This document shows, piece after piece, positions 16,805-59,858 of a stretch of DNA of 64,000 bases (its first letter is position 1; every line of letters begins with the position of its first letter). Origin of the DNA: an uncultured virus (IMG/VR IMGVR_UViG_3300022939_000006) (Duplodnaviria > Heunggongvirae > Uroviricota > Caudoviricetes); the IMG/VR virus record IMGVR_UViG_3300022939_000006. One strand, 5' to 3'. Both the position numbers and the translations under genes were made by a program. Under the pieces are notes generated by a model that saw only the letters and a list, made by a program, of their open reading frames with translations, was not told where the DNA came from and ran no database searches.

Positions 16805-17125
16805 ATGGCAACAGGAAGAATAGGAGCGGCGGATTTAGCAAGTGGTACAAATACTACCGTATATACGTGTCCAGCAGATACGTATACTGTAGCAAGTGTT
16901 AACATCTGCAATAGAGGTAACCAAGCTACCGCTGTAAGAGTGGCTGTAGCGGCCGCTGATGTTCCAATAAACAGCGAATATATAGAATATAACACTGAAA
17001 TATTATCAAAAGGTGTTTTAGAACGTACAGGTATAGTACTAGCGGCTGGGCAAAAAATTGTAGTTTATAGCTCAAGCGCAAATATATCGGCAGTAGCTAT
17101 GGGGATAGAAACCTCAACGGCATAA
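16805..17125 (+). CDS. Small virion structural/fibre-adaptor protein
   Basis: 106 aa with SD GGAG. GATAAATA at 16710 upstream. Resembles 5744..6073. Confidence 0.6.
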   Translation: MATGRIGAADLASGTNTTVYTCPADTYTVASVNICNRGNQATAVRVAVAAADVPINSEYIEYNTEILSKGVLERTGIVLAAGQKIVVYSSSANISAVAMGIETSTA

Positions 17126-17149
17126 ATACAATAGGAGAAGGATAAAACC

Positions 17150-17482
17150 ATGGGAAGATACATAACAACAACTGGTACTGCTGGGGTTACTACCAAGACA
17201 GTCAGTGGAAGCGTAGACGCTGTAGTTAATGACAGACTTTTAGTTGATACATCAGGCGGCGCTTATACAGTCACGTTACCGGCAAACGCAACTTTACTTG
17301 TTGATGACACAATACAAATTATTGATATTGCAAACAACGCGGCAAGTAATAATATTACTGTTGCTCGTAACGGAAGTGAAATTAACGACGCGGCAGACAA
17401 TCTAACAATTGATGTTAACGGTGCTATTGTAACTTTGATTTACAGTGGATCAACATACGGTTGGATCGTTGGCGCAGTATAA
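17150..17482 (+). CDS. Short tail-fibre hinge/connector-like protein
   Basis: VNDRLLVDTSGGAYTVTLPA...DTIQIID...NNITVARNG...GW resembles T4 gp34-type proximal fibre repeats. CATAAATA at 17121. Confidence 0.6.
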   Translation: MGRYITTTGTAGVTTKTVSGSVDAVVNDRLLVDTSGGAYTVTLPANATLLVDDTIQIIDIANNAASNNITVARNGSEINDAADNLTIDVNGAIVTLIYSGSTYGWIVGAV

Positions 17483-17504
17483 TAGATAGTAAAGGAAAGT
17501 AGAT

Positions 17505-18461
17505 ATGGCATCATTAGAAGCGTTATTAAAAGCTAAGATACCCGCAGGTACAGAAGACAACCTTGAAACGGGGCGTATCTACAGTTTTACTGAGGGTAAC
17601 ACTTATACAAAATTTTGTAAACAAATTTGTTGGTGTCCAAATAGTAATGGTACAGCAATAATTGAAATTTGGGGTGCTGGTGGTTCCGGTGCAAAAATGT
17701 GTTGTTGCGGTGGAGGAATTCCAGGTAATTCAGGATCATATTCAAGAAAAGAAATTTCTATGAGTTCGAGCAATACTATTACGGGTTGTACAGGATTTGC
17801 TTGTGGTAATTCTGATGCACTATGTTTTAGAGGTTGTTCAGAACCTACAATGATTTGTTGGTTTAGTACAACTAGTAATGGTTGTATGTGTGCTAGAGGT
17901 GGTAAAGGTGGTGTAAGTATTTGTTCAACGTCTCCGAGCATGTACTGTTGCTTTAGAGCAAACGGATTTTGTTACACTAACACAGGACCAAACTGCGGAA
18001 CAATTTGTAATCAGTGTACAGGACAATGGGACGCTATTGCATATGGCGGTGATATTAACAGATGCGGAAATATAGGGTGTATGGGATTCCATGGTTGCTA
18101 TCCACAATGTATTTGTCTGTTTAGATCATTTGTTGCATTTCCTCCGGGCATGATTGCAGAATGTGGTGGATTTGTATCCTACGGAATGGCAGGTGATTCA
18201 GCTCACGCTCGTTGGTCAGGAGGTGGTCAACTAGAAGCTATTGCAATGATTAACGGAGCAGGTAAATCACCAGGACACGGTATTCCTTGGAAGGGTTGTT
18301 ATAGAAGTGATACAAGCTGTGGCTGTTACAATACAAACGGATGTATGAGTACATTGCCATACGGTGTTGGTGGTCCTGGACCTCAACCATGCCCAGGTGT
18401 GAGAGATCATGCTACCAGAGGTGGTATGGGAGCATTAAGAATTAAGTTTATAGAATCGTAG
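17505..18461 (+). CDS. Cys/Gly-rich putative fibre-tip (adhesin-like) protein A
   Basis: 318 aa with 31 Cys (counted). IEIWGAGGSG...GNSGSY and a C-terminal GGMGALRIKF give a Gly-rich adhesin-like frame. Confidence 0.6.
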   Translation: MASLEALLKAKIPAGTEDNLETGRIYSFTEGNTYTKFCKQICWCPNSNGTAIIEIWGAGGSGAKMCCCGGGIPGNSGSYSRKEISMSSSNTITGCTGFACGNSDALCFRGCSEPTMICWFSTTSNGCMCARGGKGGVSICSTSPSMYCCFRANGFCYTNTGPNCGTICNQCTGQWDAIAYGGDINRCGNIGCMGFHGCYPQCICLFRSFVAFPPGMIAECGGFVSYGMAGDSAHARWSGGGQLEAIAMINGAGKSPGHGIPWKGCYRSDTSCGCYNTNGCMSTLPYGVGGPGPQPCPGVRDHATRGGMGALRIKFIES

Positions 18462-18470
18462 AGGTAAGAA

Positions 18471-19427
18471 ATGGCAAGTTTAAAAAGTATTTTAGTATCC
18501 AGAAGTGGAACAAGTCAAGAAGAAAACATCGAAAAAGGAAAGGTGTTTGCTTATTCAACGGTTGCTTCTTATACTACATACCCAGGATGTTTTTGTTGGA
18601 TTTCTCCAGGAACAGGTGACGTAGAAATTGAAGTTATTGGTGCAGGCGGATCAGGATCTAGAATGTGCTGTTGTTCAGCAACCATTTCAGGAAACTCAGG
18701 TGCATATGCCAAAAAAGCAATTACAGTAGCGGCAGGATGCTGGATTTGTGGACATGCTGGAAAGAGTTGTAGAAATAATTCACTTTGCCATAGAGGATGT
18801 TCAGAACCTGGCAGGGTATGTTGGCAAGGTAACAGCGGATCAAATGGCTGTATGTGTGCTCAAGGCGGTTGGTCAGGAGCAAGTTGGTGTACAACTGGTA
18901 CAGCACGTAGATGCTGTTTTGCGGCAAACTCATGGTGTAATACATCATACAACGGTTACTGCGGTATTGTTTGTAACAGATGTACAAATAGTTGGTGTAA
19001 CCAGGCTTACGGTGGAGATGTAAACAGAGATGGCGTACTTAGTTGTGTAACATTTTGGCACTGCTATCCAAACTGTAACTGTTCAACTATTCATCATACT
19101 GCACTTCCTCCAGGAATGTTTAGTGAGTGCGGCGGTGTAGCATCATATTCAATGGACAGTGATAATGGACACGCTCAATGGTCCGGTATGGCACTTAATG
19201 GCTATATCAATGCACTAAATAGTTTGTCGAGAATGCCAGGTTCAGGTACTTTATGGTCTGAATGTTGGGATGGAAACAGACAGTGTCAGTGTTATGACAC
19301 ACAAGGTTGTTCAATGTTTGTACCACACGGTTCAGGTGGTCCAGCGGCGAGTCCATGTAGCGGTGTTCGCGACAATGGTTGGGCAGGCGGCGATGCCTTA
19401 ATTAGAATCAAATATGTAGAAAGTTAA
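18471..19427 (+). CDS. Cys/Gly-rich putative fibre-tip protein B (paralog of A)
   Basis: 318 aa with 31 Cys. Colinear with A: MCCC, RGCSEP, NGCMCA, AYGGD.NR, PPGM..ECGG, PC.GVRD. Confidence 0.6.
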   Translation: MASLKSILVSRSGTSQEENIEKGKVFAYSTVASYTTYPGCFCWISPGTGDVEIEVIGAGGSGSRMCCCSATISGNSGAYAKKAITVAAGCWICGHAGKSCRNNSLCHRGCSEPGRVCWQGNSGSNGCMCAQGGWSGASWCTTGTARRCCFAANSWCNTSYNGYCGIVCNRCTNSWCNQAYGGDVNRDGVLSCVTFWHCYPNCNCSTIHHTALPPGMFSECGGVASYSMDSDNGHAQWSGMALNGYINALNSLSRMPGSGTLWSECWDGNRQCQCYDTQGCSMFVPHGSGGPAASPCSGVRDNGWAGGDALIRIKYVES

Positions 19428-19441
19428 ATGGAGATAGAGAA

Positions 19442-20137
19442 ATGCCTATTAGAAAAACAATAACAGTTGCTTATCCAGACGAACCGTACAAAACAACAAC
19501 GGACGCTGGTAAGACATTTGAAATGACCTATACAGGTCCGAGATACATTCTTTGTCAAGTAGACAGAGATGATGATCAAGTAAGAGAAGCTGGCAGAGGT
19601 GACAAAGCTGATGCGAAAGAACTTGATCCAGCAGGATACGAGCAGGATGATTATGATTATATCGTAATTGATGCTTCAGAAAGCGATGCAATGTGCCTAA
19701 GAGCGGCATATATGACAGACGAATATGAACATGCTGATATTGCTGATTATGAAGAAACTATTACAGATGCAAACGGAGATACATCTACGTATAACCACAT
19801 ATACGAAGGTACTACTGGAATGCTACCAAACATTTATTGGGCAGACAGCTTGTATTACAATCATGAAACAAGCACATGGTCAGGTCCAAACTTTAGAGAA
19901 CATGTAAATTCAAGAGAAAGCACAGTACAAAGCTACGCAAATATTGCGGCGTGTATGAGACGTGCTTTAGCAGATTCTAACCAAACATTTACAGATGAAG
20001 AGCGTACACTAATGACTAATCATTGTACTTGGTTGGAAAATGTTGACACATTGTATGCTGGTATTAATCACTGGAAATGGCCTTTCCCAGAAACAGTAAT
20101 GCCATACTACTTTGATCCAGACACAGATACAGCATAA
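19442..20137 (+). CDS. Hypothetical acidic protein, possible fibre assembly chaperone
   Basis: 231 aa with SD GGAG. Sits after the adhesin-like genes. The C-terminal helix plus HWKWPFP recalls Tfa-like chaperones (inference). Confidence 0.45.
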   Translation: MPIRKTITVAYPDEPYKTTTDAGKTFEMTYTGPRYILCQVDRDDDQVREAGRGDKADAKELDPAGYEQDDYDYIVIDASESDAMCLRAAYMTDEYEHADIADYEETITDANGDTSTYNHIYEGTTGMLPNIYWADSLYYNHETSTWSGPNFREHVNSRESTVQSYANIAACMRRALADSNQTFTDEERTLMTNHCTWLENVDTLYAGINHWKWPFPETVMPYYFDPDTDTA

Positions 20138-20145
20138 TTTAAAAA

Positions 20146-20222
20146 TTTCTCTATCCAATATTAACCGGACTTAACCTATATTAAGAATATATACTGTTGA
20201 GTCCGGTTTTTTAATGGAGAAA
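20146..20222 (+). terminator. Long hairpin plus U-run (terminator/attenuator) with anti-SD pairing
   Basis: 13-bp stem 20163-20175/20196-20208, inner stem 20177-20182/20186-20191, T6 at 20207-20212. Bases 20146-20153 pair with the SD region 20215-20222. Confidence 0.65.
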
Positions 20223-20229
20223 ATTTAAT

Positions 20230-21180
20230 ATGACAAAAAGATCAAAAGCCTTTTTCTTAAACGGAGGTGCTGGCCGTATGCTTTGTTCAATACCAGCATT
20301 AGAACTATACGCCAAAGAATCAGGTGATGATGATTTTGTAATTGTATGCGAAGGCGGTACAGATATGTTTAAAGGTCATCCTGTACTACATGAAAAAGCA
20401 TACGATCCTTGGCATAAAAATTTATTTAAAGATGTCATAAAACACAGACAAGTTGTTAATCCAGAACCATACCAAGTGTGGGAATACTATAATCAAAAAT
20501 GTAGTTTGGCACAAGCGTTTGATATTATTTTAAACAATAAAGGTGTTAGAGAATTACCTAAGCCATACTTAAAGTTAAGTAAAGATGAATTACTGGTAGG
20601 TAGAAAACTAGTAAATGAAGTTAAAGAAAAATTAAAGAAAGATAAAATTATAGTTTTCCAACCTTTTGGTAGAGGAATTGAGATAATAGACGATACACCT
20701 ATTGACCATACAGCAAGAAGTTTTGAATTTAAAGATGTAAAAAAATTATTAAAAATCTTAGAAAAAGATTATGGCATAGTAATGATGAGTGAATTAAAAA
20801 TAGAACTCAAAGGCGAGGGACTTAAACACGAGGTAGCTATGCCTGAAGGTTTAAGTTTAAGACAATGGGTTGGATTAATAAAATTTGCAGATCATTTTTT
20901 AGGATGTGACAGCGTAGGACAACATTTATCGTATGCAGTTGATACACCAACTACAGCAGTAATAGGAAGTACTTTTCCTATAAATGTAAGTTATCCTAAT
21001 CAAGAAACATTAAAAATTGTAGATCTAGGAATGAATGATAGGATATACGATCCTATTAGAATTACTATGGATGAAGGTACTACAAGACATAATGAAAATA
21101 TAATGGCTATGAATGATGAAATTATTAAATATCTAGTAGGCGTTATCAACCGAGAAATAGATCCTGACAAAGAAAAATGA
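20230..21180 (+). CDS. GT9-family (ADP-heptose:LPS heptosyltransferase-like) glycosyltransferase
   Basis: LSLRQWVGLIKFADHFLGCDSVGQHLSYAVDTPTTAVIGST matches the GT9 C-terminal DS..xH..xA...P signature. Also IVFQPFG and N-terminal GGAGR. Confidence 0.7.
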   Translation: MTKRSKAFFLNGGAGRMLCSIPALELYAKESGDDDFVIVCEGGTDMFKGHPVLHEKAYDPWHKNLFKDVIKHRQVVNPEPYQVWEYYNQKCSLAQAFDIILNNKGVRELPKPYLKLSKDELLVGRKLVNEVKEKLKKDKIIVFQPFGRGIEIIDDTPIDHTARSFEFKDVKKLLKILEKDYGIVMMSELKIELKGEGLKHEVAMPEGLSLRQWVGLIKFADHFLGCDSVGQHLSYAVDTPTTAVIGSTFPINVSYPNQETLKIVDLGMNDRIYDPIRITMDEGTTRHNENIMAMNDEIIKYLVGVINREIDPDKEK

Positions 21181-22037
21181 AACGCTTATTTTCAATAGGT
21201 TGCTCATTTACAAATTATGCATGGCCTACATGGGCTGATATGTTAGGTAATCACTTTGACCATTATGAAAATTGGGCATTTGCAGGTTTAGGCAATACTG
21301 CTATTGCAGAACGTCTTGCAGAATTACATGCTAGAGAAAATCTAACACAAAATGATACTGTTGTAATTCAATGGACAAGTCATTTAAGACATGACTGGCA
21401 TACTAATGATCAACGACACGAAGTAGCAAAAGGTATTGGTTGGAAAACTTCTGGTAGTATTTTTAATTATATTAATCAAGATATTTTTGATAGACGCTGG
21501 ATAGAAACATTTTGGGACGAAAATAGTTATATGATGCACACTTGTAATCATATACTCTTAGCTCAAAATTTTTTGCGTAGTATAGGTTGTACTTGGCGTA
21601 TGACTAGTATGGGATATATCCATAAAATGAATAGTGATTATCCAGTAGACGAACATGGAGAAAAAACACCGCAGTCTAACTTATGGAAAGATGTACCTTC
21701 TTTGAAAATATACCAAAAAATATTTGAAAATAAAAAAGACTGGATTATACCTATTGGAACTTTTGCATGGAACCATAGTACACCACCTTATAAATTTAAA
21801 AGCCATAATAGTCCTACATTTACAGATGATAAACATCCCACAGTATTACAACATGCAGACTATGTTAAAACACATGTACTACCTAGTTTAGGCATGAACC
21901 AGAATCTAGCCGAGAAAACAAAAAATTGGATAGATAATGTAAACAACTTATATGAAAACAGTCATAAAGATTTTGATTACTTTTGTGAAAGTGTAGATAA
22001 AACTTTAGACTGGAGAACAGATTACAGAGGATTTTAA
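21177..22037 (+). CDS. SGNH/GDSL-like hypothetical protein
   Basis: FSIGCSFT (block I-like), N.AFAGLGN, VVIQWT and DKHP. Paralog of 59859..60725. Confidence 0.5.
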   Translation: MKRLFSIGCSFTNYAWPTWADMLGNHFDHYENWAFAGLGNTAIAERLAELHARENLTQNDTVVIQWTSHLRHDWHTNDQRHEVAKGIGWKTSGSIFNYINQDIFDRRWIETFWDENSYMMHTCNHILLAQNFLRSIGCTWRMTSMGYIHKMNSDYPVDEHGEKTPQSNLWKDVPSLKIYQKIFENKKDWIIPIGTFAWNHSTPPYKFKSHNSPTFTDDKHPTVLQHADYVKTHVLPSLGMNQNLAEKTKNWIDNVNNLYENSHKDFDYFCESVDKTLDWRTDYRGF

Positions 22038-22038
22038 T

Positions 22039-23841
22039 ATGAGCAAACCAGTTTGGATAGCAGGCATAGCACGAGGTCATAACGCAGGTGTTTGTTTACT
22101 TAAAGACGGAGAAGTAGTTTTTTCAATTGAAGAGGAGAGACTAAGTAGACAGAAATACGACGGCGGTCCTTTTGCTTCAATGGTAAAAATTTTAGAATAC
22201 ACAGACAAACTAGATTATTTGGTTGTAGCTCACACACAACCATTAGCAGAAACTGCCGGAAGAGTTGATTATAGTGGAGATGATGTATATACAGGTTTAG
22301 CTCGTAAATTAGGATTAATTGATGCAAAAGCAAATGCATACACTATGGAGCATCCTCAAGTAATTGACTTAGCATTCATGCATCACAAATTACACAGTGC
22401 TTGTGCGTTTTATCGTAGTGGATTTGATAGTGCAGTTAGTGTTATTGTAGATGGCGCAGGTACTTTTGTTCCTCTAGGTATTAACAATGAACAAATTATG
22501 AGTTGGGAAACAGAAAGTATTATTGACTGCGAATATCCGTCCAATTTTACAACCTTACATAAAGTTTATGGAGTTAGAGAACCTGTCCAAGGCGGCATTG
22601 TTGAAATGGACAGTAAACAGTTTGGAGAAAACGGAAAAACACATACAGCTATTGTAAGTGATAGAGCAGGTATTGTAAAAGCATACGAAGCGGCTACAAT
22701 GTACTGTGGTTGGTCAAGTATTGAAGCAGGTAAAACTATGGGGTTATTTCCTTATGGTAAATCAAACGATAATTTTCCAAAATTATTTGAAGAAGATGTA
22801 GACTATCCGTTAACAAATAGGAATGTTGTTGTACCTAACTATCCTAACGGTGCATTCATAAATGCAGGGTTGTATAAAGAATTAAATGAAGTTCCTAAAC
22901 CTAATGAAGATGTAACACTATTACAAAGTAGAAGAGACATTGCGTATGCTGTACAAACAGAAACACAAGAAAAAGTTCTAGAATTAATTTTAAAAGCTGT
23001 TGAAATGACTGGCAAAAATAAAGTTGTACTTAGTGGTGGCTACGGATTAAATTGTGTAGCAAATTATTACTACTTAGAAACTTTACGTGAAAAAGGTATA
23101 GAACTTTATGTAGAGCCTGTATCTAATGATGCTGGTACTGCAATGGGCGCGGCAATGATGTTCTGGTATGGCTTAGAAGATGAAATAGAAAAGCGTCAAA
23201 CGCAAACTTTATATCTAGGACCAAGATATCTTTATACAGATCAACAGTTAAATGATCTAACAAATGAAGATGGCATTGAAATGAAAAATGCTACACTTGA
23301 AGATATTGTAGATTTATTAACAGAAAAAAACATTGTAACAATTTTCCAAGGACAAAGCGAAAACGGACCAAGAGCATTGGGTAATAGAAGTGTGCTATTT
23401 GATCCTAGTTTTGAAGATGGTAAGGATTATGTTAATCAAGTAAAACGTAGAGAATATTTTAGACCTTTTGCAGGATCTATTCTAGCAGAAGATGTACACG
23501 AATGGTTCGATCTACGAGGAATGAAAGATAGTCCGCATATGATGTATGCTGTGAATTGTAAAGATGGTATAGCAGAAAAAATTCCTAGTATTATTCATAT
23601 TGATGGTACATGCCGTATTCAAACTGTTACTAGAGAACAGAATCCACATTATTATGATCTAATATCAAAATTTAAAGAAAAAACAGGATTACCTATTGTA
23701 TTTAACACTAGCTTCAATCTAGGTGGTGAACCTTTAGTTGAAAAACTTGAAGATGCTATATGGACCTTAAAAAATAGTGAAATAGAATATCTATACCTAG
23801 CAGAATATGGAAAATTAATTACAATTAAAAATCCATCTTAG
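22039..23841 (+). CDS. Carbamoyltransferase, NodU/CmcH/TobZ family
   Basis: EEERLSRQK, HHKLH, VDGAG, AGKTMGL, SGGYGLNCVAN, DAGTAMGAA, GPRALGNRS, KRREYFRPFA, DGTCRIQTV, NTSFNLGGEP. Confidence 0.92.
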   Translation: MSKPVWIAGIARGHNAGVCLLKDGEVVFSIEEERLSRQKYDGGPFASMVKILEYTDKLDYLVVAHTQPLAETAGRVDYSGDDVYTGLARKLGLIDAKANAYTMEHPQVIDLAFMHHKLHSACAFYRSGFDSAVSVIVDGAGTFVPLGINNEQIMSWETESIIDCEYPSNFTTLHKVYGVREPVQGGIVEMDSKQFGENGKTHTAIVSDRAGIVKAYEAATMYCGWSSIEAGKTMGLFPYGKSNDNFPKLFEEDVDYPLTNRNVVVPNYPNGAFINAGLYKELNEVPKPNEDVTLLQSRRDIAYAVQTETQEKVLELILKAVEMTGKNKVVLSGGYGLNCVANYYYLETLREKGIELYVEPVSNDAGTAMGAAMMFWYGLEDEIEKRQTQTLYLGPRYLYTDQQLNDLTNEDGIEMKNATLEDIVDLLTEKNIVTIFQGQSENGPRALGNRSVLFDPSFEDGKDYVNQVKRREYFRPFAGSILAEDVHEWFDLRGMKDSPHMMYAVNCKDGIAEKIPSIIHIDGTCRIQTVTREQNPHYYDLISKFKEKTGLPIVFNTSFNLGGEPLVEKLEDAIWTLKNSEIEYLYLAEYGKLITIKNPS

Positions 23842-31200: not shown

Positions 31201-32655
31201 ACAAAACTTTCAGCAGACATCGATGATGCAGTTACAACAATACCTGTAGAAAGTGTAGAGTTTTTACCAGAAGCAGGCACTGTATACATTGACAATGAAC
31301 TTGTAGCATATACAGGTTTAGATACAGCTAATAATACGTTGACCGGTTGTACTAGGTCAGCTAACCTAACAAACTTCCAATCAGGCGCACAACGTACATA
31401 TACAGCTGGAGCGGCAATTAGCCATACTGAGAGAACTGGAGTTGTACTTGTAAGTAATACAACAACACCTCTTATTTCACACTGGGGTTCAGCATTTATA
31501 ACAGACGGTGGGTTTGATGAAGATCGTGGATATATTTTCAGTTACACAGAAACAAACATAACCGTAACAAATTCTAGACAAACAGCGTTTATGATTAGAC
31601 TAGCACCTAGTGTGTCAAATGCTATTCCAGGCGATCTGGGAGATAGAGAATTACTTAACAGAGCTCAACTATTACTACAGAGTTTGGAAATAACTACGGA
31701 TCAACCAACTGCGTCAGACCCAGGAACGATTGTTGTTGAAGGAATTCTAAATCCTCAAAACTATCCTGTCAACCCTAATCTAATTAGTTGGTCAGGCCTA
31801 AGTACACTTGCACAAGGTGGTCAACCTAGCTTTGCCCAAGTAGCATCAGGTACTGGTATTACTTGGACTACTGGTGCTTCAACAACTACAGCTAACCTTA
31901 CTGCACAGGCAACTATTCAAGCTGTATTAGATTCAGGTCAAAACAGATCGAACAATGGTAATAGTTTTATATGGGTAAGTGCTGTTGATTATAGAACAAC
32001 TTTTGGTACAAATTTGTTAGACATTGTTACAGGTAAAACAATTATTGGAAACAATATTCCAAACGGTGCCTATATAACTGGTGGATATATTAGTCCATCT
32101 AGTAACTATGGCTATTTCTTTATATCACAAAATATTACAGGAAATATTCAAAGAAATGTAAGCAATGCCTACACAATCCAATCACACAGTGATTTAAATA
32201 ATGCTCCAAATGCATTTATTACAAAAGCAAGCTGGGAAGCAAGCGGCGGCACAAATGGCACAGCAGTAAGTAGCACCAGCTCAAATCCAAGTTGGCCTGC
32301 TGGTACAGTTATAAACAAAATTTCATTGGAAGATTTTGCAGGTACAGAATACTATCAAATTGAATTTAACCAAGCGGCTCAAGGAACACTACAACAAGGT
32401 AGTGGCACAATTACACTAGAATTTAGTGCTCCTGCATACGGACAACCAGGTGAAACTGTGCTTTCATTTATATCTCAACCAGGAGAAAGAGCAACTTTAA
32501 GTCTTGCAGAATTGAAAGAACTTACGAATACTACACTTGGAGGTAGAGGTACATTCCCGAATGGACCAGACGTTCTTGCAATCAACATTTATAAAACATC
32601 TGGTGCAGACATAGGCGCTAACTTAATTCTAAGATGGGGTGAAGCTCAAGCGTAA
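25243..32655 (+). CDS. Giant (2470 aa) virion structural/fibre protein
   Basis: Thr/Gly-rich. Contains a YNQSKCERD helical repeat, eight LGG.(T/S)P.ND.x.I repeats and a DADFEYGLQPTKW block. Confidence 0.75.
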   Translation: MAKRKINNYKFKPGIGYTENLYPNGYALLNNNKSFLVAETSAFILNRITDADTYALELVDIINGIKFDMFFGNAAQRLYGEVESRKPDTTKLLRQRTLDRIKTSLSALSNVTGTFQTNIETTITNINSISDGGTSPTLNITDPAGITVNLGYAKTRITNNRAFLIEEVKAYIDTDTPGNAITTDTNFSTDIGLLIDCVQFDLVHQSNILSNAIATYIFVNTPSANRTLLGEGLSRLGVVIKQVIEGDTVTVSEGNSLTQNGTGVNASTAEGNYAQARVDDVQVVTSNGTVASLPGDVAPDITGESAGGQAAATDIDNNLATIIATDNAFKDYTYNQSKCERDVNFILSAYLFDLRYGGNSKTYDYAGKYWEGTVAQVDGTRYPELDTHAWIKFVIKEYIWDKQAYPAEQTGTVQTVSGDDAESALDNRIDTLNSIVLDVIAGGLTALPTFEDTGAGYVKFIGNYDSSDILLITDTVENKVIYSFNDANTGGVTELTTFTSSNGVVYETDPDFPAFLDTADAITKVFFNTSTSTSLSTNKLQIFVDNDELVIRPYEFGTDAIERNRTAEPLSMLDADFEYGLQPTKWSAIATMRGYPSVYEVPGTETDVSQVITDASSGTNDVGSSLITVTTLGAHGLVEGDAITLKGLNPQTFGYSRAEGAFIITTVPNSISFTFYAKAKVGTTDGDSLQSESTQLRKAGFYTGADIGVPTFSVTSQGSNGVVAPALIVPSGEDVIPFTVVSGGAPETGAPVTADTGIPLGTQITGRVGTGGVVTTPVVTADFNEGETAITVQDTAGVVQNLAADRGDGQAMLVNTVVGNTINFNTGITSDFSGNLVTYTAIEGTNVVSLGFGATFDISRSGGTYTIQAIANSGQNYEVDDVLEIQGEFLGGITPTNDAQITVDSVDTGGEILTATISGSAFNGTGNFANITGNYNHGNGQGGIFDITYTNNVFTATLSDPVYNNVTGTSTGGAGTGAIFNITQTNNVYSVTVDPQTIGVTGYAINDIIKIAGTELGGSTPNNDAQISVTSVDSEGYPTGVNIAGVAANAQNTYTGVTYSTNNSGIGAQINVNTNGTGYSATFSQQGTGFAASDTITVLGSQLGGVDGVNDLTITINTVDTGGEILTYTESGTAVNTSSFSNITNHTNLIGSGASFNVTVNNLAETYSVVIDQGGSDYGPNQTIVIPGDQLGGASPANDLTLTITDVDNDSTLVAGPILTVSTSGTSLKATTNYTVEDRLKIPGTQFSGGVDGTNDCIIRVTGVDSDGGITTFTVSGTAPDGNVTYPALAGTTTGSGTAGAFDVTRTGTTYTVGVSNGGANYAALDTVTIVGTDLGGTSPANDATITIDTVDGSGAVLTASIAGTAANVGSADNQSGTALIGNGATFNVALSGGAYTTTVAQGGQEYFAGQTFTVPGNQLAGATPTNDLTITISTVGATGDITAVTDSGSASTDVASFANVVANVAGSTGNGASFDVVRDGTNAASSVGTYTVSLNASGGNYAPGNKIRLDGGNLGGTTSVNDILLTVQTVDSAGAVLTYTYSGAAYAGDDLSLYSTFTIDTQTDAQLQTTLQISFSALATLLITFTTAHGLVPGDTFITTVGSDDGSNNHNLGAGSFLITSVPSATTLTYTARAAGSIDTSNDEITGTVYPRPDSFFVHRPFDGGVQLGTGGPQHGAQAIRQSKKYIRYQSGKGIMYTTGALFAPSYDLRSCTSDGVEVGSTITITCDDNDHGLQIGAKVQLIGIETVGYNGTYTVNDIISERTFEVSAVNRLGDTTAVLSFGAQVSTYQWHGATVRSGVFDDQNGIYWEYDGTNLLACQRTATKQVSGTGTINPDENTVNGTNTRFRDQLKAGDRVVIRGMTHVVTSVVDQTTMTVSPDYRGVNTATGTKICLISDKKVRQRDFNIDAMDGNGPSGYNFVASKMQMIGIEYSWYGAGFIDYMVRGADGNFVYAHRIRNSNVNTEAYMRSGNLPVRYEITNEGQNTKLSADIDDAVTTIPVESVEFLPEAGTVYIDNELVAYTGLDTANNTLTGCTRSANLTNFQSGAQRTYTAGAAISHTERTGVVLVSNTTTPLISHWGSAFITDGGFDEDRGYIFSYTETNITVTNSRQTAFMIRLAPSVSNAIPGDLGDRELLNRAQLLLQSLEITTDQPTASDPGTIVVEGILNPQNYPVNPNLISWSGLSTLAQGGQPSFAQVASGTGITWTTGASTTTANLTAQATIQAVLDSGQNRSNNGNSFIWVSAVDYRTTFGTNLLDIVTGKTIIGNNIPNGAYITGGYISPSSNYGYFFISQNITGNIQRNVSNAYTIQSHSDLNNAPNAFITKASWEASGGTNGTAVSSTSSNPSWPAGTVINKISLEDFAGTEYYQIEFNQAAQGTLQQGSGTITLEFSAPAYGQPGETVLSFISQPGERATLSLAELKELTNTTLGGRGTFPNGPDVLAINIYKTSGADIGANLILRWGEAQA
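27800..29890 (+). repeat. Eight imperfect beta-rich coding repeats (G.xLGG.xP.NDxTI)
   Basis: Copies near 27901, 28279, 28540, 28804, 28972, 29236, 29491 and 29776. Confidence 0.8.
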
Positions 32656-33173
32656 ATGTTATAATTTACAATACATCTAGGCTTGTCTGTAGGATATCCA
32701 CCTGCATGTAAAGTATTACCGTCAAACAATACTATACGTCCTTTTTTAGGTGACACACGTTCTATGATTTTTTCATTTTCAAAAAATACAGTGTCTCCGT
32801 CGCTGTCGTTTAGATAGTAAATTAAGCCTAAATGCTCTTCTGGACGATCTGTATGCGGAGCATAATGTTCCAAACTAGTTTTGTGTGGCACAGTTATAAA
32901 AAGTCTAGCCGCAATAATATCAATTAAATTTATATCTAAATTTGCACACACAATTTGTGGTACTTTACTAAAGTTACCATAATGTTCTGTAAGTTTTGTA
33001 CTGCTTTTTAAAACATGTTCAAAACTGACAGGTAAAATATTTCCGTCATACGCAGTTGGTTCATACTTACATACTAGTGGTAACATAGCATTAACATTAT
33101 TATTACCAAATACAAGTGTATGGTAATAGTCCTGTAAATCTAAAGGAATAATATCGTCTTTAATTACTATCAT
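32646..33173 (-). CDS. 2OG-Fe(II) oxygenase superfamily protein
   Basis: PHTD...IYYLNDSDGDT.FF...PKKGRIVLFDG...HAG...R.IVN: HxD...H facial triad plus Arg. Confidence 0.8.
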   Translation of the reverse strand: MIVIKDDIIPLDLQDYYHTLVFGNNNVNAMLPLVCKYEPTAYDGNILPVSFEHVLKSSTKLTEHYGNFSKVPQIVCANLDINLIDIIAARLFITVPHKTSLEHYAPHTDRPEEHLGLIYYLNDSDGDTVFFENEKIIERVSPKKGRIVLFDGNTLHAGGYPTDKPRCIVNYNIYA

Positions 33174-33795
33174 CTAAGCTATCCACAAACGCGGCTAGAT
33201 TGTCAAACACTTTTGTTGCTTTTCTAATATTTTTATATGTAAATCTTTTTTTAATTAATTGTTCAGTTTCTTTACCATGTCCTGTACGTACAAGTATAGG
33301 TTTAGCACCCATTTTTAGAGCGGCCTTTAAATCTCTAATTCTGTCACCTACATAATAACCCTTAGAAAATTTTACATGAGGTACTTCTTTTTCGCAACGC
33401 TTGAACATACCAGTGTTTGGTTTAGCATACATATCATTTTTTGCGCTACTTGCACTATAATACAACCCATCTATACTAGGACATCCTGCTTTGCCTAGTT
33501 CTTCAAACATATAAGTGTGTAATTTATCTACATCTTCTTGTGTGTATAATCCTTTTTCTATACCACCTTGATTTGTAATGATTACAATTTTATGACCAAG
33601 TTTACGCAATTTTACAATAGCATCTAAACTTCCATCTTCAAATTTCCAGTCATCTTTTTTGTATACATAGTCTCCTATGTCTACATTTATAACTCCGTCT
33701 CTATCTAAACCAACTACACATTTTGGTGCAATATAGTCTGGTTTATAAAAATCGATGTCAACGTCATCACTCCATACTATCTTGGGATTGTTCAT
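33160..33795 (-). CDS. gmhB: D,D-heptose 1,7-bisphosphate phosphatase (HAD class III)
   Basis: LDRDGVIN, ITNQGGI, KPNTGM, VGDRIRD, LVRTGHG. Co-operonic with hldD and hldE. Confidence 0.85.
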   Translation of the reverse strand: MNNPKIVWSDDVDIDFYKPDYIAPKCVVGLDRDGVINVDIGDYVYKKDDWKFEDGSLDAIVKLRKLGHKIVIITNQGGIEKGLYTQEDVDKLHTYMFEELGKAGCPSIDGLYYSASSAKNDMYAKPNTGMFKRCEKEVPHVKFSKGYYVGDRIRDLKAALKMGAKPILVRTGHGKETEQLIKKRFTYKNIRKATKVFDNLAAFVDSLDDSN

Positions 33796-34192
33796 CTTGT
33801 ATTTCTTTCAATTTTGCAGTTATTTCTCCTTGACTATCGCCAGGAATAATTCTATAGTTATCTTCTACACTATCAGCTGTACTTACTTCTGTAATACTAC
33901 TTCCATCTTCTAGAGCTTCTAGTTGATGTGGTAATAGTGGAGGATTATGCCATGTGCTACCTGTAGTTAAAGTTTGACTAAACAATGTAGCAGTTTTTGT
34001 ATCAATCCATCTCAATAAAAAACTACCGTTATTAACAAACCAAGTTTCGTCTTTTTCTCTGTGGAAATGCATACTAAATTTGTTTCCTTTTTTAGTAAAA
34101 ACTAACATTTTACCACAGTATTTGTCATTGCTTGCCCAAATTACTTCATAACCCCAACCTTTTTCTACTTTACCATTTAATCTATCTGTCAT
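33767..34192 (-). CDS. Cupin-fold sugar isomerase-like protein
   Basis: VEKGWGYE...FSMHFH.EKDETW...PHQL.ALE...EVST...DNYR resembles the type II PMI-like cupin. Confidence 0.7.
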   Translation of the reverse strand: MTDRLNGKVEKGWGYEVIWASNDKYCGKMLVFTKKGNKFSMHFHREKDETWFVNNGSFLLRWIDTKTATLFSQTLTTGSTWHNPPLLPHQLEALEDGSSITEVSTADSVEDNYRIIPGDSQGEITAKLKEIQDEQSQDSME

Positions 34193-35015
34193 TTATCCAT
34201 TCCTTTGTTGTAGTGAATTTAAATTCACCAATAGTTTTTAGTAACTTGTCATTATTACTACACGTATAATTTTGATATTGATTTTTTAATATATCAGGCA
34301 TTGGTATTGGGTTTATCTTTGCATCATATTTCTCTGCAATATCTTCTGCAATACTTTGAAAACTTGTTGCTACACCAGTACCACAATTCCATATACCACT
34401 TTCGTCAATATCTAATAATTTTTCTACAATTTTACAAACATCACCAACATATATAAAATCTCTTTTGTAGTTTGCACTATTTTCAAAAGGTTGTACAATA
34501 CCTTTAGTTTGAGCTTGTTCAGTAAATTTATGAAATACACTCATTTGATTGCCTTTGTGTTCTTCATGCTCTCCATAAACATTGAAGAAACGTAGTCCTT
34601 GTATTTTACATTTATATTGTTCCCAATCTAACAGCGTTATACTTCGGTCAAATAAGTATTTGCTCCATGCATAAGGGCTTTGTGGTTGTAAAGGCCCATC
34701 TTCTGTAAAATGCTGTGTATCTCCATATACGCTGGCACTAGATGCATACAGAAAATCAACACCCTGCATGTCACAAACTTGTAATAATCTATGACTAAAA
34801 TCTAAGTTGTATTGTAATATTTTTTCAACATCTCTTTCTGTTGTGCTACTAATTGCACCCATGTGTATAACTTTATCAAATTGACTACAATCTGGCACTA
34901 CATTCAATGTAGGTTCATTGTATTCAGCAATGCCGTGTCCTTTAGACATAAGGTAATTTTTTAAATTTTTACCAATAAAACCTGCGGCACCAGTAATTAA
35001 AATTTTATAACTCAT
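34182..35015 (-). CDS. hldD: ADP-L-glycero-D-manno-heptose 6-epimerase
   Basis: ITGAAGFIG, HMGAISSTTE, YASSASVYG, Y..SK, RFFNVYGEHEEHKG.Q.SV, RDFIYV.D, YQNYT. Confidence 0.88.
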   Translation of the reverse strand: MSYKILITGAAGFIGKNLKNYLMSKGHGIAEYNEPTLNVVPDCSQFDKVIHMGAISSTTERDVEKILQYNLDFSHRLLQVCDMQGVDFLYASSASVYGDTQHFTEDGPLQPQSPYAWSKYLFDRSITLLDWEQYKCKIQGLRFFNVYGEHEEHKGNQMSVFHKFTEQAQTKGIVQPFENSANYKRDFIYVGDVCKIVEKLLDIDESGIWNCGTGVATSFQSIAEDIAEKYDAKINPIPMPDILKNQYQNYTCSNNDKLLKTIGEFKFTTTKEWINDR

Positions 35016-36150
35016 TTATTTTCTCTAATGTTGCTGTTGTAGAAAATCCTTTTACTGTAGGAACAATATGCACTGGTGCTAAATCGTGCCCTACAATTTC
35101 TTCTACAGTGTAATCTCCGCCTTTAACTATAAGATCAGGCTTTAATTTTTTTATTAATTCATATGGAGTATCTTCAGTAAATGTATGCACTTCGTCGATC
35201 CATGGTAGTACTTCTAGTTGTGCTACTCTTGTTGCAACATCGTTAATAGGACGATCACTTCCTTTAAGTCGTTTCACACTACCGTCACTGTTTACTCCTA
35301 CTATAAGTTTATCACCTAAACTTCTAGCTTCTTTTAGTAATGTTAAATGTCCTTTATGCAAAACATCAAAACAACCATTTGTGAATACAACACGCTTTTG
35401 TAGATCTTTTTCAGTTAAAATATACGTGCCTAAATGTTTTACACTTTCAGAAGAACCTCGTATAGCAAGTTCTAAACATTTTTTATAATCGTACTCTTTA
35501 GTAAGAGCATACACAAATCCTGCTATAAAACAATCACCTGCGCCTGTTACATCAGATACTTCAACTGTTTCTACAGACATATCATATTCTTTGTCTTCTA
35601 TTTTTGCAATAACATTATTACCTGCATCTGTAGTAATGATATTGCCTTTCCACTCATCAAATTCAAAATTAGTAAATTCATTATAATTAGGTTTTACTAA
35701 CCAAGCTCCTTCGTAATCATGAGCGTAACGTTTTGGATCTACAATTATTTTACAATTAAATTTGTTAATATGTTTTATAATTTTTTTGGAATTATCTAAT
35801 ACACCTTTATCATAGTCACTTAAAACTACAATATCGTAACTAGAAAAATCTGATTGTTTTATTTGCTCTAATACAGCACCCGAATCTGCATCTTTGTCAT
35901 CATCTATACGTGTGATGTAATGCCCGTCACAAATTACTCTAGTCTTAACACTGTTATGTCCTTGGTAATTAAATAGATCTACATTAACACCTAAACTTTT
36001 CAAGTTCTCGTATACTAATCCTGCACCACCAATAGTTTCTACAATTCTTTCTTGTGATACAACAGGCACTGGTGCTTCTGGACTCAAACGTGTGCTTGTT
36101 CCATATATGTATTTGTCTATTATTATATCACCAATTACTAAAACTTTCAT
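35005..36150 (-). CDS. hldE: Bifunctional heptose-7-P kinase / heptose-1-P adenylyltransferase
   Basis: RLSPEAPVPV, LSDYDKG, VDPK and DVTGAGD (PfkB) fused to FTNGCFDVLHKGH, NSD.SVKRLKG..RP and VKGGDY. Confidence 0.92.
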   Translation of the reverse strand: MKVLVIGDIIIDKYIYGTSTRLSPEAPVPVVSQERIVETIGGAGLVYENLKSLGVNVDLFNYQGHNSVKTRVICDGHYITRIDDDKDADSGAVLEQIKQSDFSSYDIVVLSDYDKGVLDNSKKIIKHINKFNCKIIVDPKRYAHDYEGAWLVKPNYNEFTNFEFDEWKGNIITTDAGNNVIAKIEDKEYDMSVETVEVSDVTGAGDCFIAGFVYALTKEYDYKKCLELAIRGSSESVKHLGTYILTEKDLQKRVVFTNGCFDVLHKGHLTLLKEARSLGDKLIVGVNSDGSVKRLKGSDRPINDVATRVAQLEVLPWIDEVHTFTEDTPYELIKKLKPDLIVKGGDYTVEEIVGHDLAPVHIVPTVKGFSTTATLEKINEL

Positions 36151-40008: not shown

Positions 40009-40037
40009 TTGACAAACTAATTTTTTTATTGTATATT
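40009..40037 (+). promoter_or_regulatory. Sigma70-type promoter (TTGACA-17-TATATT), leaderless
   Basis: ATG 40044 lies at the expected +1. Confidence 0.75.
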
Positions 40038-40043
40038 TTATAC

Positions 40044-40688
40044 ATGCAGTATGAAATTACACCCTTATTTTCCACACCTCTATTGAAAACACATCTAGGA
40101 GCACTTGATCCTATTACACTTGCTTGGATGAAAAAATTAGATTATCCTAGTTCAGCTGTAGCATCTTATTCCGGAGAAGAAGAATTACCTCTAACTGAGA
40201 GAGGATTTAATGTTTTAAATCAACCTAAACTACAAGGATTAAAAACACTTATTGAACAAGCAGTTCATTATTTTGCACACACAGTATTAGATGTTGTTGA
40301 TGATGTAGACTTTACATTAACAACAAGTTGGATTAATAAAATGAATACAGGTAGTGATATTGTATTACACAATCATGCAAATGCAGTTATAAGTGGAGTG
40401 TATTATCCAGATGTAGGTCCAACTTCTAATCCACTAACTTTTAAAAAAAATAGACAACATTTAAATAGTTTTCCAGAACATGTACGTCCGGATACTAAAG
40501 GTAATTATAATCAATATACTATAGGTGCATGGACAGTACAGCCTATTACAGGTGATTGTTTAATATTTCCTAGTCACTTAGAACATGAAGTTGCACAAAG
40601 TTTAGATAAACAAGATAGATACAGTTTGGCATTTAATTATTTTCCAAAAGGATCGTTAGGACAAAATTCAGTAAGAGTAAACATATGA
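40044..40688 (+). CDS. Putative 2OG-Fe(II) oxygenase (TIGR02466-like)
   Basis: PLFSTP, SWIN, HNHANAVISGVYY, LIFPSHLEHEV, RYSLAFN. Confidence 0.8.
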   Translation: MQYEITPLFSTPLLKTHLGALDPITLAWMKKLDYPSSAVASYSGEEELPLTERGFNVLNQPKLQGLKTLIEQAVHYFAHTVLDVVDDVDFTLTTSWINKMNTGSDIVLHNHANAVISGVYYPDVGPTSNPLTFKKNRQHLNSFPEHVRPDTKGNYNQYTIGAWTVQPITGDCLIFPSHLEHEVAQSLDKQDRYSLAFNYFPKGSLGQNSVRVNI

Positions 40689-41293
40689 CAGTAACATCTT
40701 TATTTCCGATACCATTATACTACTCAAATATAGGTGTAGTTAATGATATGACTAAACAATGGGTCTACAAACTAGATTATCCACATGAAGCGGCAGGCCA
40801 CGATCATACAGGTAATAAAAAAATATTAGATGAAGTGCCTCTAAAAAACTTAAAAGAAAAAATTATTGATAGCTGTAATAAATTCATTACAGAAGAATTA
40901 AAAGTATCCGACGTTACTTTTGAATTACAAAACAGTTGGATTAACAGACATGATAAAGGTGAATATAATACTACTCATTGGCATAGTAATTCAATGTTAA
41001 GCGGTGTTTATTATATACAAAATGCGCCAGGCGCAGGCGATATAGTATTTCAAAAATCTCATTTATATTACAATTTATTTCATGATACTGTAAGAGTAAA
41101 TTTTAAAGAGCCTAATGCATTTAACACAAATGAATTTTATATAACACCAAACGAAGGAGACATTGTGATTTTTCCAAGTCATTTAGAACATATGGTAACG
41201 CCAAACGAAACTGATATCCCTAGATACAGTTTGGCGTTTAATTTATTTGCTAGAGGTACCGTAGGCGGCGGAACATCGGAGTTAACTGTATGA
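40685..41293 (+). CDS. Putative 2OG-Fe(II) oxygenase (TIGR02466-like), tandem paralog
   Basis: SWIN, HWHSNSMLSGVYY, IFPSHLEHMV, RYSLAFN. Confidence 0.8.
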   Translation: MTVTSLFPIPLYYSNIGVVNDMTKQWVYKLDYPHEAAGHDHTGNKKILDEVPLKNLKEKIIDSCNKFITEELKVSDVTFELQNSWINRHDKGEYNTTHWHSNSMLSGVYYIQNAPGAGDIVFQKSHLYYNLFHDTVRVNFKEPNAFNTNEFYITPNEGDIVIFPSHLEHMVTPNETDIPRYSLAFNLFARGTVGGGTSELTV

Positions 41294-41907
41294 GGCAAGT
41301 AATAGGTATTTGTGGATTGATCAGTAGTGGTAAAGGTACTGTTGCTGATATTTTAGTAAATGAACACAATTTTACAAAAATTAGTTTTGCTGACAAGCTC
41401 AAAGACGGTGTAGCAAGCGTATTTGGTTGGGACAGACAAATGCTAGAAGGCGACACAGAAGAAAGTAGACAATGGAGAGAAACTGTTGATAGTTTTTGGA
41501 CTAAAGAAACTGGTAGAACTGTTACGCCAAGATTAATACTACAAGAATTTGGCACAGAATGTATGCGTAAAGGTTTTTATGACGGTATATGGGTAAGTGT
41601 AATCAAACAAGAAATAGTTAGAAATCCAGATACAAATTTTGTTATTCCGGATGTGCGTTTTCCTAATGAAGCAAATATGCTTAAAACCATATATGGAGAA
41701 GTTTGGCGTGTACGTAGAGGTCCTGATCCTGTATGGTTTAGAATGTACCAAGATATAGGGGTGGAACCGAAAGAAATACACGAATCAGAATGGCGCTGGG
41801 CTAATGTTGCATTCAATGAAGTTATTGAAAACCAAGGAACTATTGAACAACTTAAAAGTCAGGTAAAAGGTCGCCTTGTTTCCAACGGATCCCTTGTTTC
41901 TGCATAA
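41290..41907 (+). CDS. gp1: Deoxynucleoside monophosphate kinase
   Basis: GICGLISSGKGT P-loop, SFADKLK, TPRLILQEFGTE, IPDVRFPNE, HESE. Confidence 0.85.
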   Translation: MRQVIGICGLISSGKGTVADILVNEHNFTKISFADKLKDGVASVFGWDRQMLEGDTEESRQWRETVDSFWTKETGRTVTPRLILQEFGTECMRKGFYDGIWVSVIKQEIVRNPDTNFVIPDVRFPNEANMLKTIYGEVWRVRRGPDPVWFRMYQDIGVEPKEIHESEWRWANVAFNEVIENQGTIEQLKSQVKGRLVSNGSLVSA

Positions 41908-42190
41908 GTCTTTGACAGTTAGCACATATTGTTTTTAGATTCATAGGCAAGCAATTATTTAGATCACCATCTATGTGAAACACATTAAACTGCTCTTTGT
42001 GCTTACTTTTAAAATTGCATTTTTCACATACATCCTTTTTTACATAGCCGGCCATTTTCCATTTAGGAATACCGTACCCTACGTGTCCATGCTTCAAACA
42101 AATTTCACACTTTTTTCTATAAAAGGTTCTGCCATTCTTTTTATAATTAATTGCCGCAGGTCTTTGTTTGCATATACATAATGGTCTCAT
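41852..42190 (-). CDS. Zn-finger/HNH-like protein
   Basis: CxC and CxxC pairs. HIDGDLNNC...NLKTICANCQ is a degenerate HNH motif. Confidence 0.65.
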   Translation of the reverse strand: MRPLCICKQRPAAINYKKNGRTFYRKKCEICLKHGHVGYGIPKWKMAGYVKKDVCEKCNFKSKHKEQFNVFHIDGDLNNCLPMNLKTICANCQRLMQKQGIRWKQGDLLPDF

Positions 42191-59819: not shown

Positions 59820-59858
59820 AATATTATTTATTGTAAAAGTGCGTATATAAATACCTAC

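Follow-up and report, generated by a model that had tools for sequence, protein, structure and literature searches.

SunS-type S-glycosyltransferases of glycocins, which have a GT2 fold, attach a sugar to the sulfur of cysteine at one or two sites of a secreted peptide. Mycobacteriophage glycosyltransferases glycosylate the phage's own particle, at the C-termini of capsid and tail tube subunits (Freeman 2023, as described in the available text of PMC12619734). The protein heptosyltransferase TibC requires a catalytic aspartate, D110 (PMC4358343), and carbamoyl-heptose is a known residue of the core lipopolysaccharide (LPS) of Pseudomonas (PMC8005017). The fold of the fibre protein gp24 of phage Pam3 is described as receptor-binding and chaperone-assisted (PMC9608196); the main text of that paper, as available, makes no mention of cysteine, disulfide or glycosyl. 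The cyanomyoviruses P-SSM2, S-SSM7 and S-SM2 carry T4-GC 302-308, reported as 'LPS genes' of unknown function that act on host LPS or serve as stuffer (PMC1079782, PMC3037559); the word 'heptose' is absent from the available main texts of both papers and 'cysteine' from that of PMC3037559. The cassette described here lies at positions 16805 to 23841 of a 64,000-nucleotide stretch of an uncultured virus (IMGVR_UViG_3300022939_000006), called the window below, and encodes Cys-rich fibre tip proteins followed by a glycosyltransferase (GT) of GT9 fold and a carbamoyltransferase. The window is part of a 132-kb viral record (G000, 38% complete); among jumbo phages, Phosso, Vibrio 2.275.O and Serratia BF have major capsid proteins that share 70-72% identity with the one encoded by this record. 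The main new result is that GTs of this kind, which have Arg or Lys in place of a catalytic Asp, accompany Cys gained in different fibre folds of unrelated phages.

The structural model of the GT (pLDDT 89.9) had a GT9-type GT-B fold. Foldseek matched it to TibC (E 3.7e-11), 3tov (E 1.7e-10), 1psw (E 4.2e-10) and 2gt1 (E 1.9e-9), and WaaF and WaaC were among the matches. PF01075 scored 21.5 bits against a cut-off of 22 (E 1.6e-4) over 49 residues only; PDB sequence searches with the GT alone or with its close alignment gave nothing useful, and a wide GT alignment gave a weak match to WaaF/WaaC. The GT family comprised 3638 clusters at 90% and 610 representatives at 50%. The window protein was aligned with 80 near-full-length members picked from 150 listed representatives (about 25% column identity); in this alignment position 16 was Arg in 77 of the 81 sequences, Lys in two and Asp in none. 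By HMMER, R16 aligned with WaaC D13, which we take to be the catalytic base of that enzyme, at a sub-threshold score, and by MAFFT the R16 column held D or N in four ordinary viral GT9s. The donor-side DSxxxH motif was retained, and the active site appears to be maintained, since E79-P-Y, D159, R163, D227 and H232 were conserved in the 81-sequence alignment. No Cys was conserved across these homologs (C91 in 13/81, C226 in 34/81), set against the four-Cys iron finger of TibC. By sequence alignment, the catalytic Asp residues that define GT9 (in the N-terminal G-D loop) and BAHT (the Asp110 equivalent) were both missing, with Arg in the Asp column, so the GT is not a standard member of GT9 or of the TibC group. 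The earlier note had called the protein a GT9 enzyme; the model and Foldseek bear this out for the fold, while the catalytic Asp is absent and the PF01075 score falls short of its cut-off.

A sister clade with Lys (motif EGGxGK...EPY) was monophyletic with a support of 0.997, and the Arg and Lys types grouped together weakly (support 0.60). The Lys-type clade was estimated at about 520 stretches in viral contigs (L481-L559, L432:26997-27878) and includes the pelagiphages HTVC111P/112P. No viral loci were found with an Aeromonas-phage GT as query. A scan of genome contigs with one pattern of C-ending codons gave 16 matches, 14 by chance and two on phage contigs inside metagenome-assembled genomes (MAGs); this cellular-range scan consisted of a single pattern and does not prove absence of the GT from cells.

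Distant GTs were collected with DNA patterns that have R or K built in and cover only part of the possible codons. The Arg-type pattern gave 120 stretches, 80 of them with flanks, and 66 true loci. A strict rule counted a neighbouring protein as Cys-rich when a stretch of 150 residues contained 11 or more Cys. By this rule, 43 of these 66 loci had such a neighbour, compared to none of the 12 loci drawn with a motif of ordinary GT9s and two of the 14 loci matched by chance. These neighbours were visibly different fibre types, with up to 146 Cys. An independent Lys-type scan yielded 79 true loci out of 80, and 38 of these held beta-roll repeats. For comparison, beta-roll fibre repeats were also drawn blindly, regardless of Cys and GT (137 stretches); in this sample Cys content was bimodal and most of the stretches had none. 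When the same rule was applied to both sets, which have two contigs in common, at least 0.15 Cys per repeat was found in 37 of the 38 Lys-type repeat loci and in 14 of 121 blind loci. All seven Arg-type loci with beta-roll repeats were Cys-bearing (0.5-1.05 Cys per repeat). The repeat-bearing GT loci formed 18 clusters at 70% identity, 17 of which were Cys-positive throughout. The association was also tested in reverse, with 98 blind loci whose 92 records were searched for the GT. An Arg/Lys-type GT was present in 3 of the 10 Cys-positive records (one of them cut before the motif and typed by likeness) and in none of the other 82, in which the sole GT match was a TPR-fused Asp-type GT9.

Whole records, hand-picked from 112 matches with their GT status in view, gave a similar picture. 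The Cys content of the repeat region was 2.1% in HTVC111P, 2.7% in HTVC112P, 3.4% in AG-345-L05 and 1.0% in P-SSM2, all GT-positive, and 0-0.6% in seven GT-negative genomes; one contig at 0.7% was ambiguous, as its GT sits on another record of the same name. Tail proteins of the GT-positive Vibrio phages SBP1 and K479 contained 4.4% and 2.4% Cys, respectively. When these were aligned with five proteins from four GT-negative phages, the Cys of SBP1 and K479 met a Cys at 0 of 86 positions, and 52 of the 81 non-gap partners were polar or charged (the partners were mostly S, V, D, E, K, Q and T). In HTVC111P the GT is located directly behind the Cys-bearing fibre, and no heptose or carbamoyl genes are annotated.

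The earlier note had proposed that the phage decorates its own fibre tips, possibly on Cys. This self-decoration gains support from the tracking of Cys-laden fibres by the GT, from the change of Asp to Arg or Lys, and from minimal phages with a GT and a fibre alone; the comparative support is strong, and the chemistry is what we infer from it. We consider it fairly probable that the GT S-heptosylates exposed fibre Cys from ADP-heptose and that, in the Arg branch, the carbamoyltransferase then tailors the sugar. In this phage, the GT would transfer heptose to thiols of Cys exposed on its three tip proteins. The GT9 fold, the DSxxxH motif and the linked hldE, gmhB and hldD genes point to ADP-heptose as the donor. 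A thiol acceptor is suggested because thiols are readily ionised without the help of a base and the resulting thiolate would be stabilised by a basic side chain; Arg16 would take this role in place of a base. Modification would take place in the cytoplasm, while the tips are being made or are bound by the chaperone. The heptose would then receive the carbamoyl group, a modification also seen in the core LPS of Pseudomonas, and the SGNH-like protein of the cassette might optionally acylate or edit the sugar. Our guess is that such a coat would shield or tune the receptor-binding surface with respect to proteases, fouling, grazers or host adhesion. A broader proposal would take in jumbo T4-like phages, cyanomyoviruses, pelagiphages, and Vibrio and Aeromonas phages: a widespread, phage-specific clade of GT9-fold S-glycosyltransferases able to place sugars on any Cys at a protein surface, fibres of unrelated phages recoded with tens to more than 100 Cys tags, a dense coat of S-linked (carbamoyl-)heptose, and a route in which a cupin stands in for GmhA. 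As a whole, this is possible, and we put it forward tentatively.

Eight co-oriented genes had been claimed at 16805-23841, and they were present exactly so, as same-strand open reading frames (ORFs) of 106, 110, 318, 318, 231, 316, 286 and 600 amino acids (aa), flanked on both sides by long fibre genes. These genes and the heptose genes of the window are as follows.

16805..17125, + strand: small fibre-domain protein of 106 aa ('adaptor'); tail fibre domains phrog_11338 and phrog_693; kept upstream of tips
17150..17482, + strand: small fibre-domain protein of 110 aa ('hinge'); phrog_9648 tail protein, phrog_972 proximal tail fibre; conserved
17505..18461, + strand: Cys-rich fibre tip A, 31 Cys, proposed acceptor; TNF-like and glycine-rich fold by model and Foldseek
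18471..19427, + strand: Cys-rich fibre tip B, 31 Cys, proposed acceptor; paralog of A (44% identity); phrog_4205
19442..20137, + strand: probable tail-fibre assembly chaperone, 231 aa; phrog_9740; family profile matches S-SSM7_118
20230..21180, + strand: glycosyltransferase of GT9 fold in which Arg16 occupies the place of the catalytic Asp; proposed S-heptosyltransferase of Cys; model, Foldseek, alignment
21177..22037, + strand: SGNH-like protein at motif level, accessory, possible O-acyltransferase or esterase; invariant blocks in 22 sequences
22039..23841, + strand: NodU/TobZ-family O-carbamoyltransferase; PF02543, PF16861, PDB homologs
33160..33795, - strand: GmhB-like heptose bisphosphate phosphatase; NF006506, E 5.9e-41, below cut-off
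33767..34192, - strand: cupin, candidate GmhA stand-in; weak Cupin_1/2; adjoins hldE in relatives
34182..35015, - strand: HldD-like ADP-heptose 6-epimerase; TIGR02197, E 1.1e-71, below cut-off
35005..36150, - strand: HldE-like heptose kinase/adenylyltransferase; NF008454 (E 7.3e-86), TIGR02198 and TIGR02199, below cut-offs

The first two proteins had been named 'adaptor' and 'hinge'; the PHROG matches identify them as fibre-domain proteins and give these specific role names no backing.

The gene order of the cassette was conserved far beyond chance. Seventy-two loci, many of them close kin, were fetched using the tips as seed, and in 60 of these the sequence continues for 2.5 kb or more beyond the last tip. 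The GT and the carbamoyltransferase were encoded downstream of the tips in 58 of the 60, and an SGNH-like gene in 17. Near loci were also fetched with the GT as seed; of the best 80 among 596, 70 had a Cys-rich ORF, and the ten misses end early on the tip side. In eight loci (L128, L134, L138, L140, L141, L143, L150 and L162) the enzyme block was inverted yet still adjoined the tips; the co-occurrence of the Cys-rich family with the GT and the carbamoyltransferase, a check proposed in the earlier note, therefore survives inversion. The cultured phages S-CAM1, P-SSM2 and S-SSM7 had the same order of tips, GT and carbamoyltransferase, and in all three the cassette was followed by hldE halves, a HAD phosphatase, a cupin and hldD. 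Genes similar to 2OG-Fe(II) oxygenases interrupt the cassette of S-SSM7. Several relatives had a second Arg-type GT copy right after the carbamoyltransferase (L024:14484-15434, L036:15215-16195 and kin), with which a disaccharide is possible, and among relatives with duplicated genes some carried two chaperones or two SGNH genes. The same cassette was also found on phage contigs binned into bacterial MAGs (L451, L461; Chitinophagales, Crocinitomicaceae), which may represent misbinning or a hint at Bacteroidota hosts.

Tips A and B are both 318 aa long with 31 Cys each, contain 55 and 45 Gly, respectively, and are 44% identical to each other, so that the two Gly-rich 31-Cys paralogs seen earlier were confirmed in Cys count, Gly content and kinship. 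They are not a pair. A third paralog is encoded outside the window, upstream of it (G000 57242-58198, L081:5242-6198), with 318 aa, 32 Cys and 54% identity to tip A, and is preceded by its own fibre-domain genes of 112 aa and 166 aa (region G000:C1:56380-58198). In most relatives the three tip genes follow one another in tandem, which may point to a heterotrimer or to three kinds of fibre. The three tips consist of 9.7-10.1% Cys, compared to 0-0.7% in the six longest fibre and virion proteins of the record. Ser+Thr number 49-56 in the tips. Structure prediction, also suggested in the earlier note, placed tip A in a glycine-rich fibre-tip fold (pLDDT 80): the model had a TNF-like beta-sandwich and a glycine-rich lattice, its best Foldseek match was the Pam3 fibre gp24 (7ypx; E 1.8e-6, TM 0.45-0.55), and the next were the Bxb1 tail tip and the ALK glycine-rich domain. 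PF21722 was above cut-off in two of seven Cys-rich tail proteins scanned and weak in one more, and a PDB sequence search with the tip alignment gave nothing useful.

The pattern of the cysteines was analysed in 685 repeats from 22 proteins, with six repeat positions fixed by the search pattern. Cys occurred at repeat positions 1, 2, 8, 9, 12 and 13, and the same positions are variable in Cys-free repeats, where they hold S, N, D, T, A and Y among others; this variability suggests that the repeat Cys are surface-exposed. Pairs of Cys numbered 128 within repeats (162 expected) and 233 between adjacent coils (252 expected). The tips showed no bias toward even Cys counts (42 of 79 even). Neither parity nor pairing supported a fully disulfide-bonded fibre. 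This pattern agrees better with bulky tags that are spaced out and independent of one another than with disulfides or metal sites.

The carbamoyltransferase identification in the earlier note was confirmed by two Pfam domains above cut-off (PF02543, 85 bits; PF16861, 196 bits) and by matches to GdmN, NovN-type and TobZ structures (E 1e-42 to 1e-53). The available text on NodU-family enzymes that modify DNA describes thymidylate synthase homologs nearby and C and T at TobZ G421 and R423 (PMC8670742). In the window protein G448 and R450 are retained in GPRALGNRS, with the mapping to TobZ G421/R423 deduced by us. As a dedicated partner, the carbamoyltransferase follows the tips in 58 of 60 loci but is an add-on overall, being encoded in 44 of the 66 Arg-type loci and in none of the 79 Lys-type loci. 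From this distribution and the variable donor genes, the GT and a Cys-laden fibre appear to be the core of the system, with the rest modular. SGNH hydrolases have Ser, Gly, Asn and His blocks and a Ser-His-Asp triad. In the SGNH-like protein, G8-C9-S10, G37, G39 and H220-P221 were invariant in 22 sequences; it had no Pfam, PHROG or NCBIfam match, and its Atlas look-alikes were viral, with DUF6071 on 13% of one cluster. The earlier SGNH claim thus stands as a likeness at motif level and not as a fixed member of the cassette (17 of 60 loci). The 231-aa protein is probably a tail-fibre assembly chaperone, judging from its family profile, which matches S-SSM7_118 (E 1.5e-5), a protein that holds PF16778; by Pfam, PF16778 was absent from the window candidate and from all six closer homologs.

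GmhB-, cupin-, HldD- and HldE-like proteins are encoded at 33160-36150 on the opposite strand, 10 kb from the cassette. GmhB, HldD and HldE were the best NCBIfam matches, all below the equivalog cut-offs. ADP-heptose synthesis had been attributed to this region; the HldE-, GmhB- and HldD-like proteins are there, and GmhA was not found. There was no gmhA match in the 38%-complete record or in any of 50 related records, including five at least 90% complete and three cultured genomes. A 'phosphoheptose isomerase' is annotated in S-CAM1 and P-SSM2 (L073:15916-16239, L074:16039-16383); this label looks wrong, since the S-CAM1 protein has a DxDGT motif of HAD type at its start and gmhA has no match in either genome. 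The cupin adjoins hldE in 14 of 17 distant loci. Cupin mannose-6-phosphate isomerases exist, and by analogy the cupin may replace GmhA as a non-orthologous sedoheptulose-7-phosphate isomerase. This idea rests on context, as the closest PDB sequences of the cupin are oxalate decarboxylases (a D-lyxose isomerase follows at E 0.28); PHROGs label it 'cysteine dioxygenase'. The HldE adenylyltransferase model matched 22 of 45 records and 22 of 37 GT-positive ones, two of these only at E ~1e-22 and perhaps another cytidylyltransferase. Six GT-positive records without an HldE match, including HTVC111P/112P, SBP1, K479 and HJ05, presumably come from phages that rely on the host for the donor.

Other genes were noted in the window and among relatives. 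Positions 57007-63916 and L082:127-3604 hold a second run of unannotated enzyme-like genes (200-310 aa), including a methyltransferase-like ORF (57788) and a cytidylyltransferase-cupin fusion (60722-61492), which is possibly another glycan module. Three 2OG-Fe(II) oxygenases are encoded at 32646-33173 and 40029-41293, near the heptose cluster and the neck genes. The gap that precedes the tail sheath gene contains a 112-aa ORF with 9 Cys (41852-42190, - strand), which is perhaps not a true gene.

Several observations weigh against Cys heptosylation by the GT or against the strength of its coupling to fibre cysteines. Every chemical step is inferred and no glycan has been observed. Foldseek did not separate TibC (3.7e-11) from the LPS heptosyltransferases (1.7e-10 to 1.9e-9), differences too small for the fold to name the acceptor, and the alignment of R16 with D13 is sub-threshold. 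The conserved E79 or D159 could be an alternative base. Twenty of the 31 Cys of tip A were at least 85% conserved in 79 homologs, which would suit disulfides or metal sites equally and indicates that some tip Cys may be structural, and one class of Cys pair (position 8 to position 1 of the next coil) was enriched, with a z of 3.0 among the 54 classes shown. The loci are not independent; the repeat-bearing GT loci fall into few clusters (18 at 70% and 5 at 50% identity), so the nominal p of 2e-23 overstates independence. Two tip-seeded loci (L067 and L068, in records 32% and 40% complete) had three tips and no GT match, and 7 of the 10 Cys-positive blind records, all fragments 7-33% complete, had none either. 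The strict Cys rule was passed by only 18 of the 79 Lys-type loci, the Cys of which are spread thinly, and hldE was present in only 3 of the 79, which makes an ADP-heptose donor less certain for the Lys branch. Lastly, 23 of the 66 distant Arg-type loci had no neighbour passing the strict rule, some of them short or just under it. Eight records of such loci were examined further: G129 encodes a small protein of 170 aa that is rich in Cys (12 Cys), G132 has two proteins just below the rule, and G130, G131, G133, G134, G136 and G137, fragments 11-30% complete, nowhere reach it. Three of these loci (L188, L214 and L227, in G130, G134 and G136) belong to a clade in which the Arg-type GT lies beside ribonucleotide reductase, with no Cys-rich protein in the fragments.

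These observations leave some room for other explanations. It is rather unlikely that the GT-fold protein acts on fibre Cys in some other way, with a different nucleotide-sugar donor, as transient thiol protection or as a non-catalytic folding aid. Such a role would agree with the loss of the canonical base, the neighbouring assembly chaperones and the mostly heptose-free gene content of the Lys branch, but the donor-side DSxxxH motif is retained, hldE, gmhB and hldD lie directly behind the GT and carbamoyltransferase in cyanophages and small phages, and a sugar carbamoyltransferase requires a sugar-like acceptor. TibC-like O-heptosylation of fibre Ser/Thr, with the Cys forming stabilising disulfides or binding metal, we consider unlikely. 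It would leave unexplained the gain of Cys in unrelated folds only beside this GT, the unpaired Cys without even bias and the loss of the Asp that TibC requires, even though TibC is the top fold match, the tips contain 49-56 Ser+Thr, conservation extends to 20 of the 31 Cys of the tip, and the base could be E79 or D159. Remodelling of host LPS with carbamoyl-heptose against superinfection, with the location among fibre genes due to chance or late expression, is quite unlikely. It was proposed for the P-SSM2 'LPS genes' (PMC1079782, available text), and it would accommodate both the action of GT9 and WapO-type enzymes on LPS core and the clade with the GT beside ribonucleotide reductase. It offers no reason for the coupling of GT and Cys, and ordinary viral GT9s had no Cys-rich neighbours (0/12). 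Marine picocyanobacterial LPS is reported to lack heptose and Kdo. The earlier preference for self-decoration over host LPS is thus strengthened, with LPS remodelling still carried at low probability. Modification of phage DNA by the GT and carbamoyltransferase (to 5-carbamoyloxymethylcytosine or glycosylated bases) was rejected on motif and gene context as very improbable: phage NodU-family enzymes do carbamoylate 5-hydroxymethylcytosine (PMC8670742, available text), but this carbamoyltransferase is encoded among fibre genes and keeps G448/R450.

The data indicate a real, conserved system, and Cys heptosylation of fibres would make it a form of virion glycosylation with possibly new chemistry. 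A literature search, which left subscription journals largely uncovered, found no report of phage-fibre Cys glycosylation, of the Arg of this GT, or of a cupin in place of GmhA. If true, the tips would be the first virion proteins glycosylated on cysteine and the GT the first GT9-fold S-glycosyltransferase. The proposal would give a function to cyanophage 'LPS genes' unexplained since 2005-2010, and would shift them out of host metabolism and into virion assembly. It would also explain the Cys-rich fibres of abundant marine phages, predict missing peptides in their proteomes, and possibly provide a sequence-tolerant enzyme for Cys-directed protein glycosylation.

Compared with the known systems, the cassette is closest in gene content to the cyanomyovirus 'LPS genes', in which the GT corresponds to T4-GC 302, the carbamoyltransferase to 303 and the heptose genes to 304-308, behind Cys-rich tips; in the window the heptose genes are instead 10 kb away on the other strand. 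TibC and AAH (4rap, 4rb4; PMC4358343) share with the phage GT a GT9-like GT-B fold, the ADP-heptose donor and a protein acceptor with repeats, the last two deduced for the phage enzyme, the acceptor from context. They differ in that TibC uses Asp110 and Ser, while the phage GT has Arg or Lys and a proposed Cys acceptor, at 13-14% identity. WaaC/WaaF together with Pseudomonas WapO share the fold, the DS/TxxxH donor motif and the pairing of heptosyl transfer with heptose O-carbamoylation, but the phage GT has no catalytic Asp, is found in phages and is linked to fibre genes. Pam3 gp24 (7ypx) and its chaperone gp25 likewise combine a TNF-like and glycine-rich fold with a chaperone gene that follows; the window tips differ in their 10% Cys, their three paralogs and a much shorter N-terminal helix. 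Mycobacteriophage glycosylation differs in not being on fibre Cys, and no heptose or carbamoyl module is mentioned in the available text on it. SunS-type enzymes resemble the proposed activity in their Cys acceptor, whereas the phage GT has a GT9 fold and its candidate sites, located on virion proteins, number in the tens.

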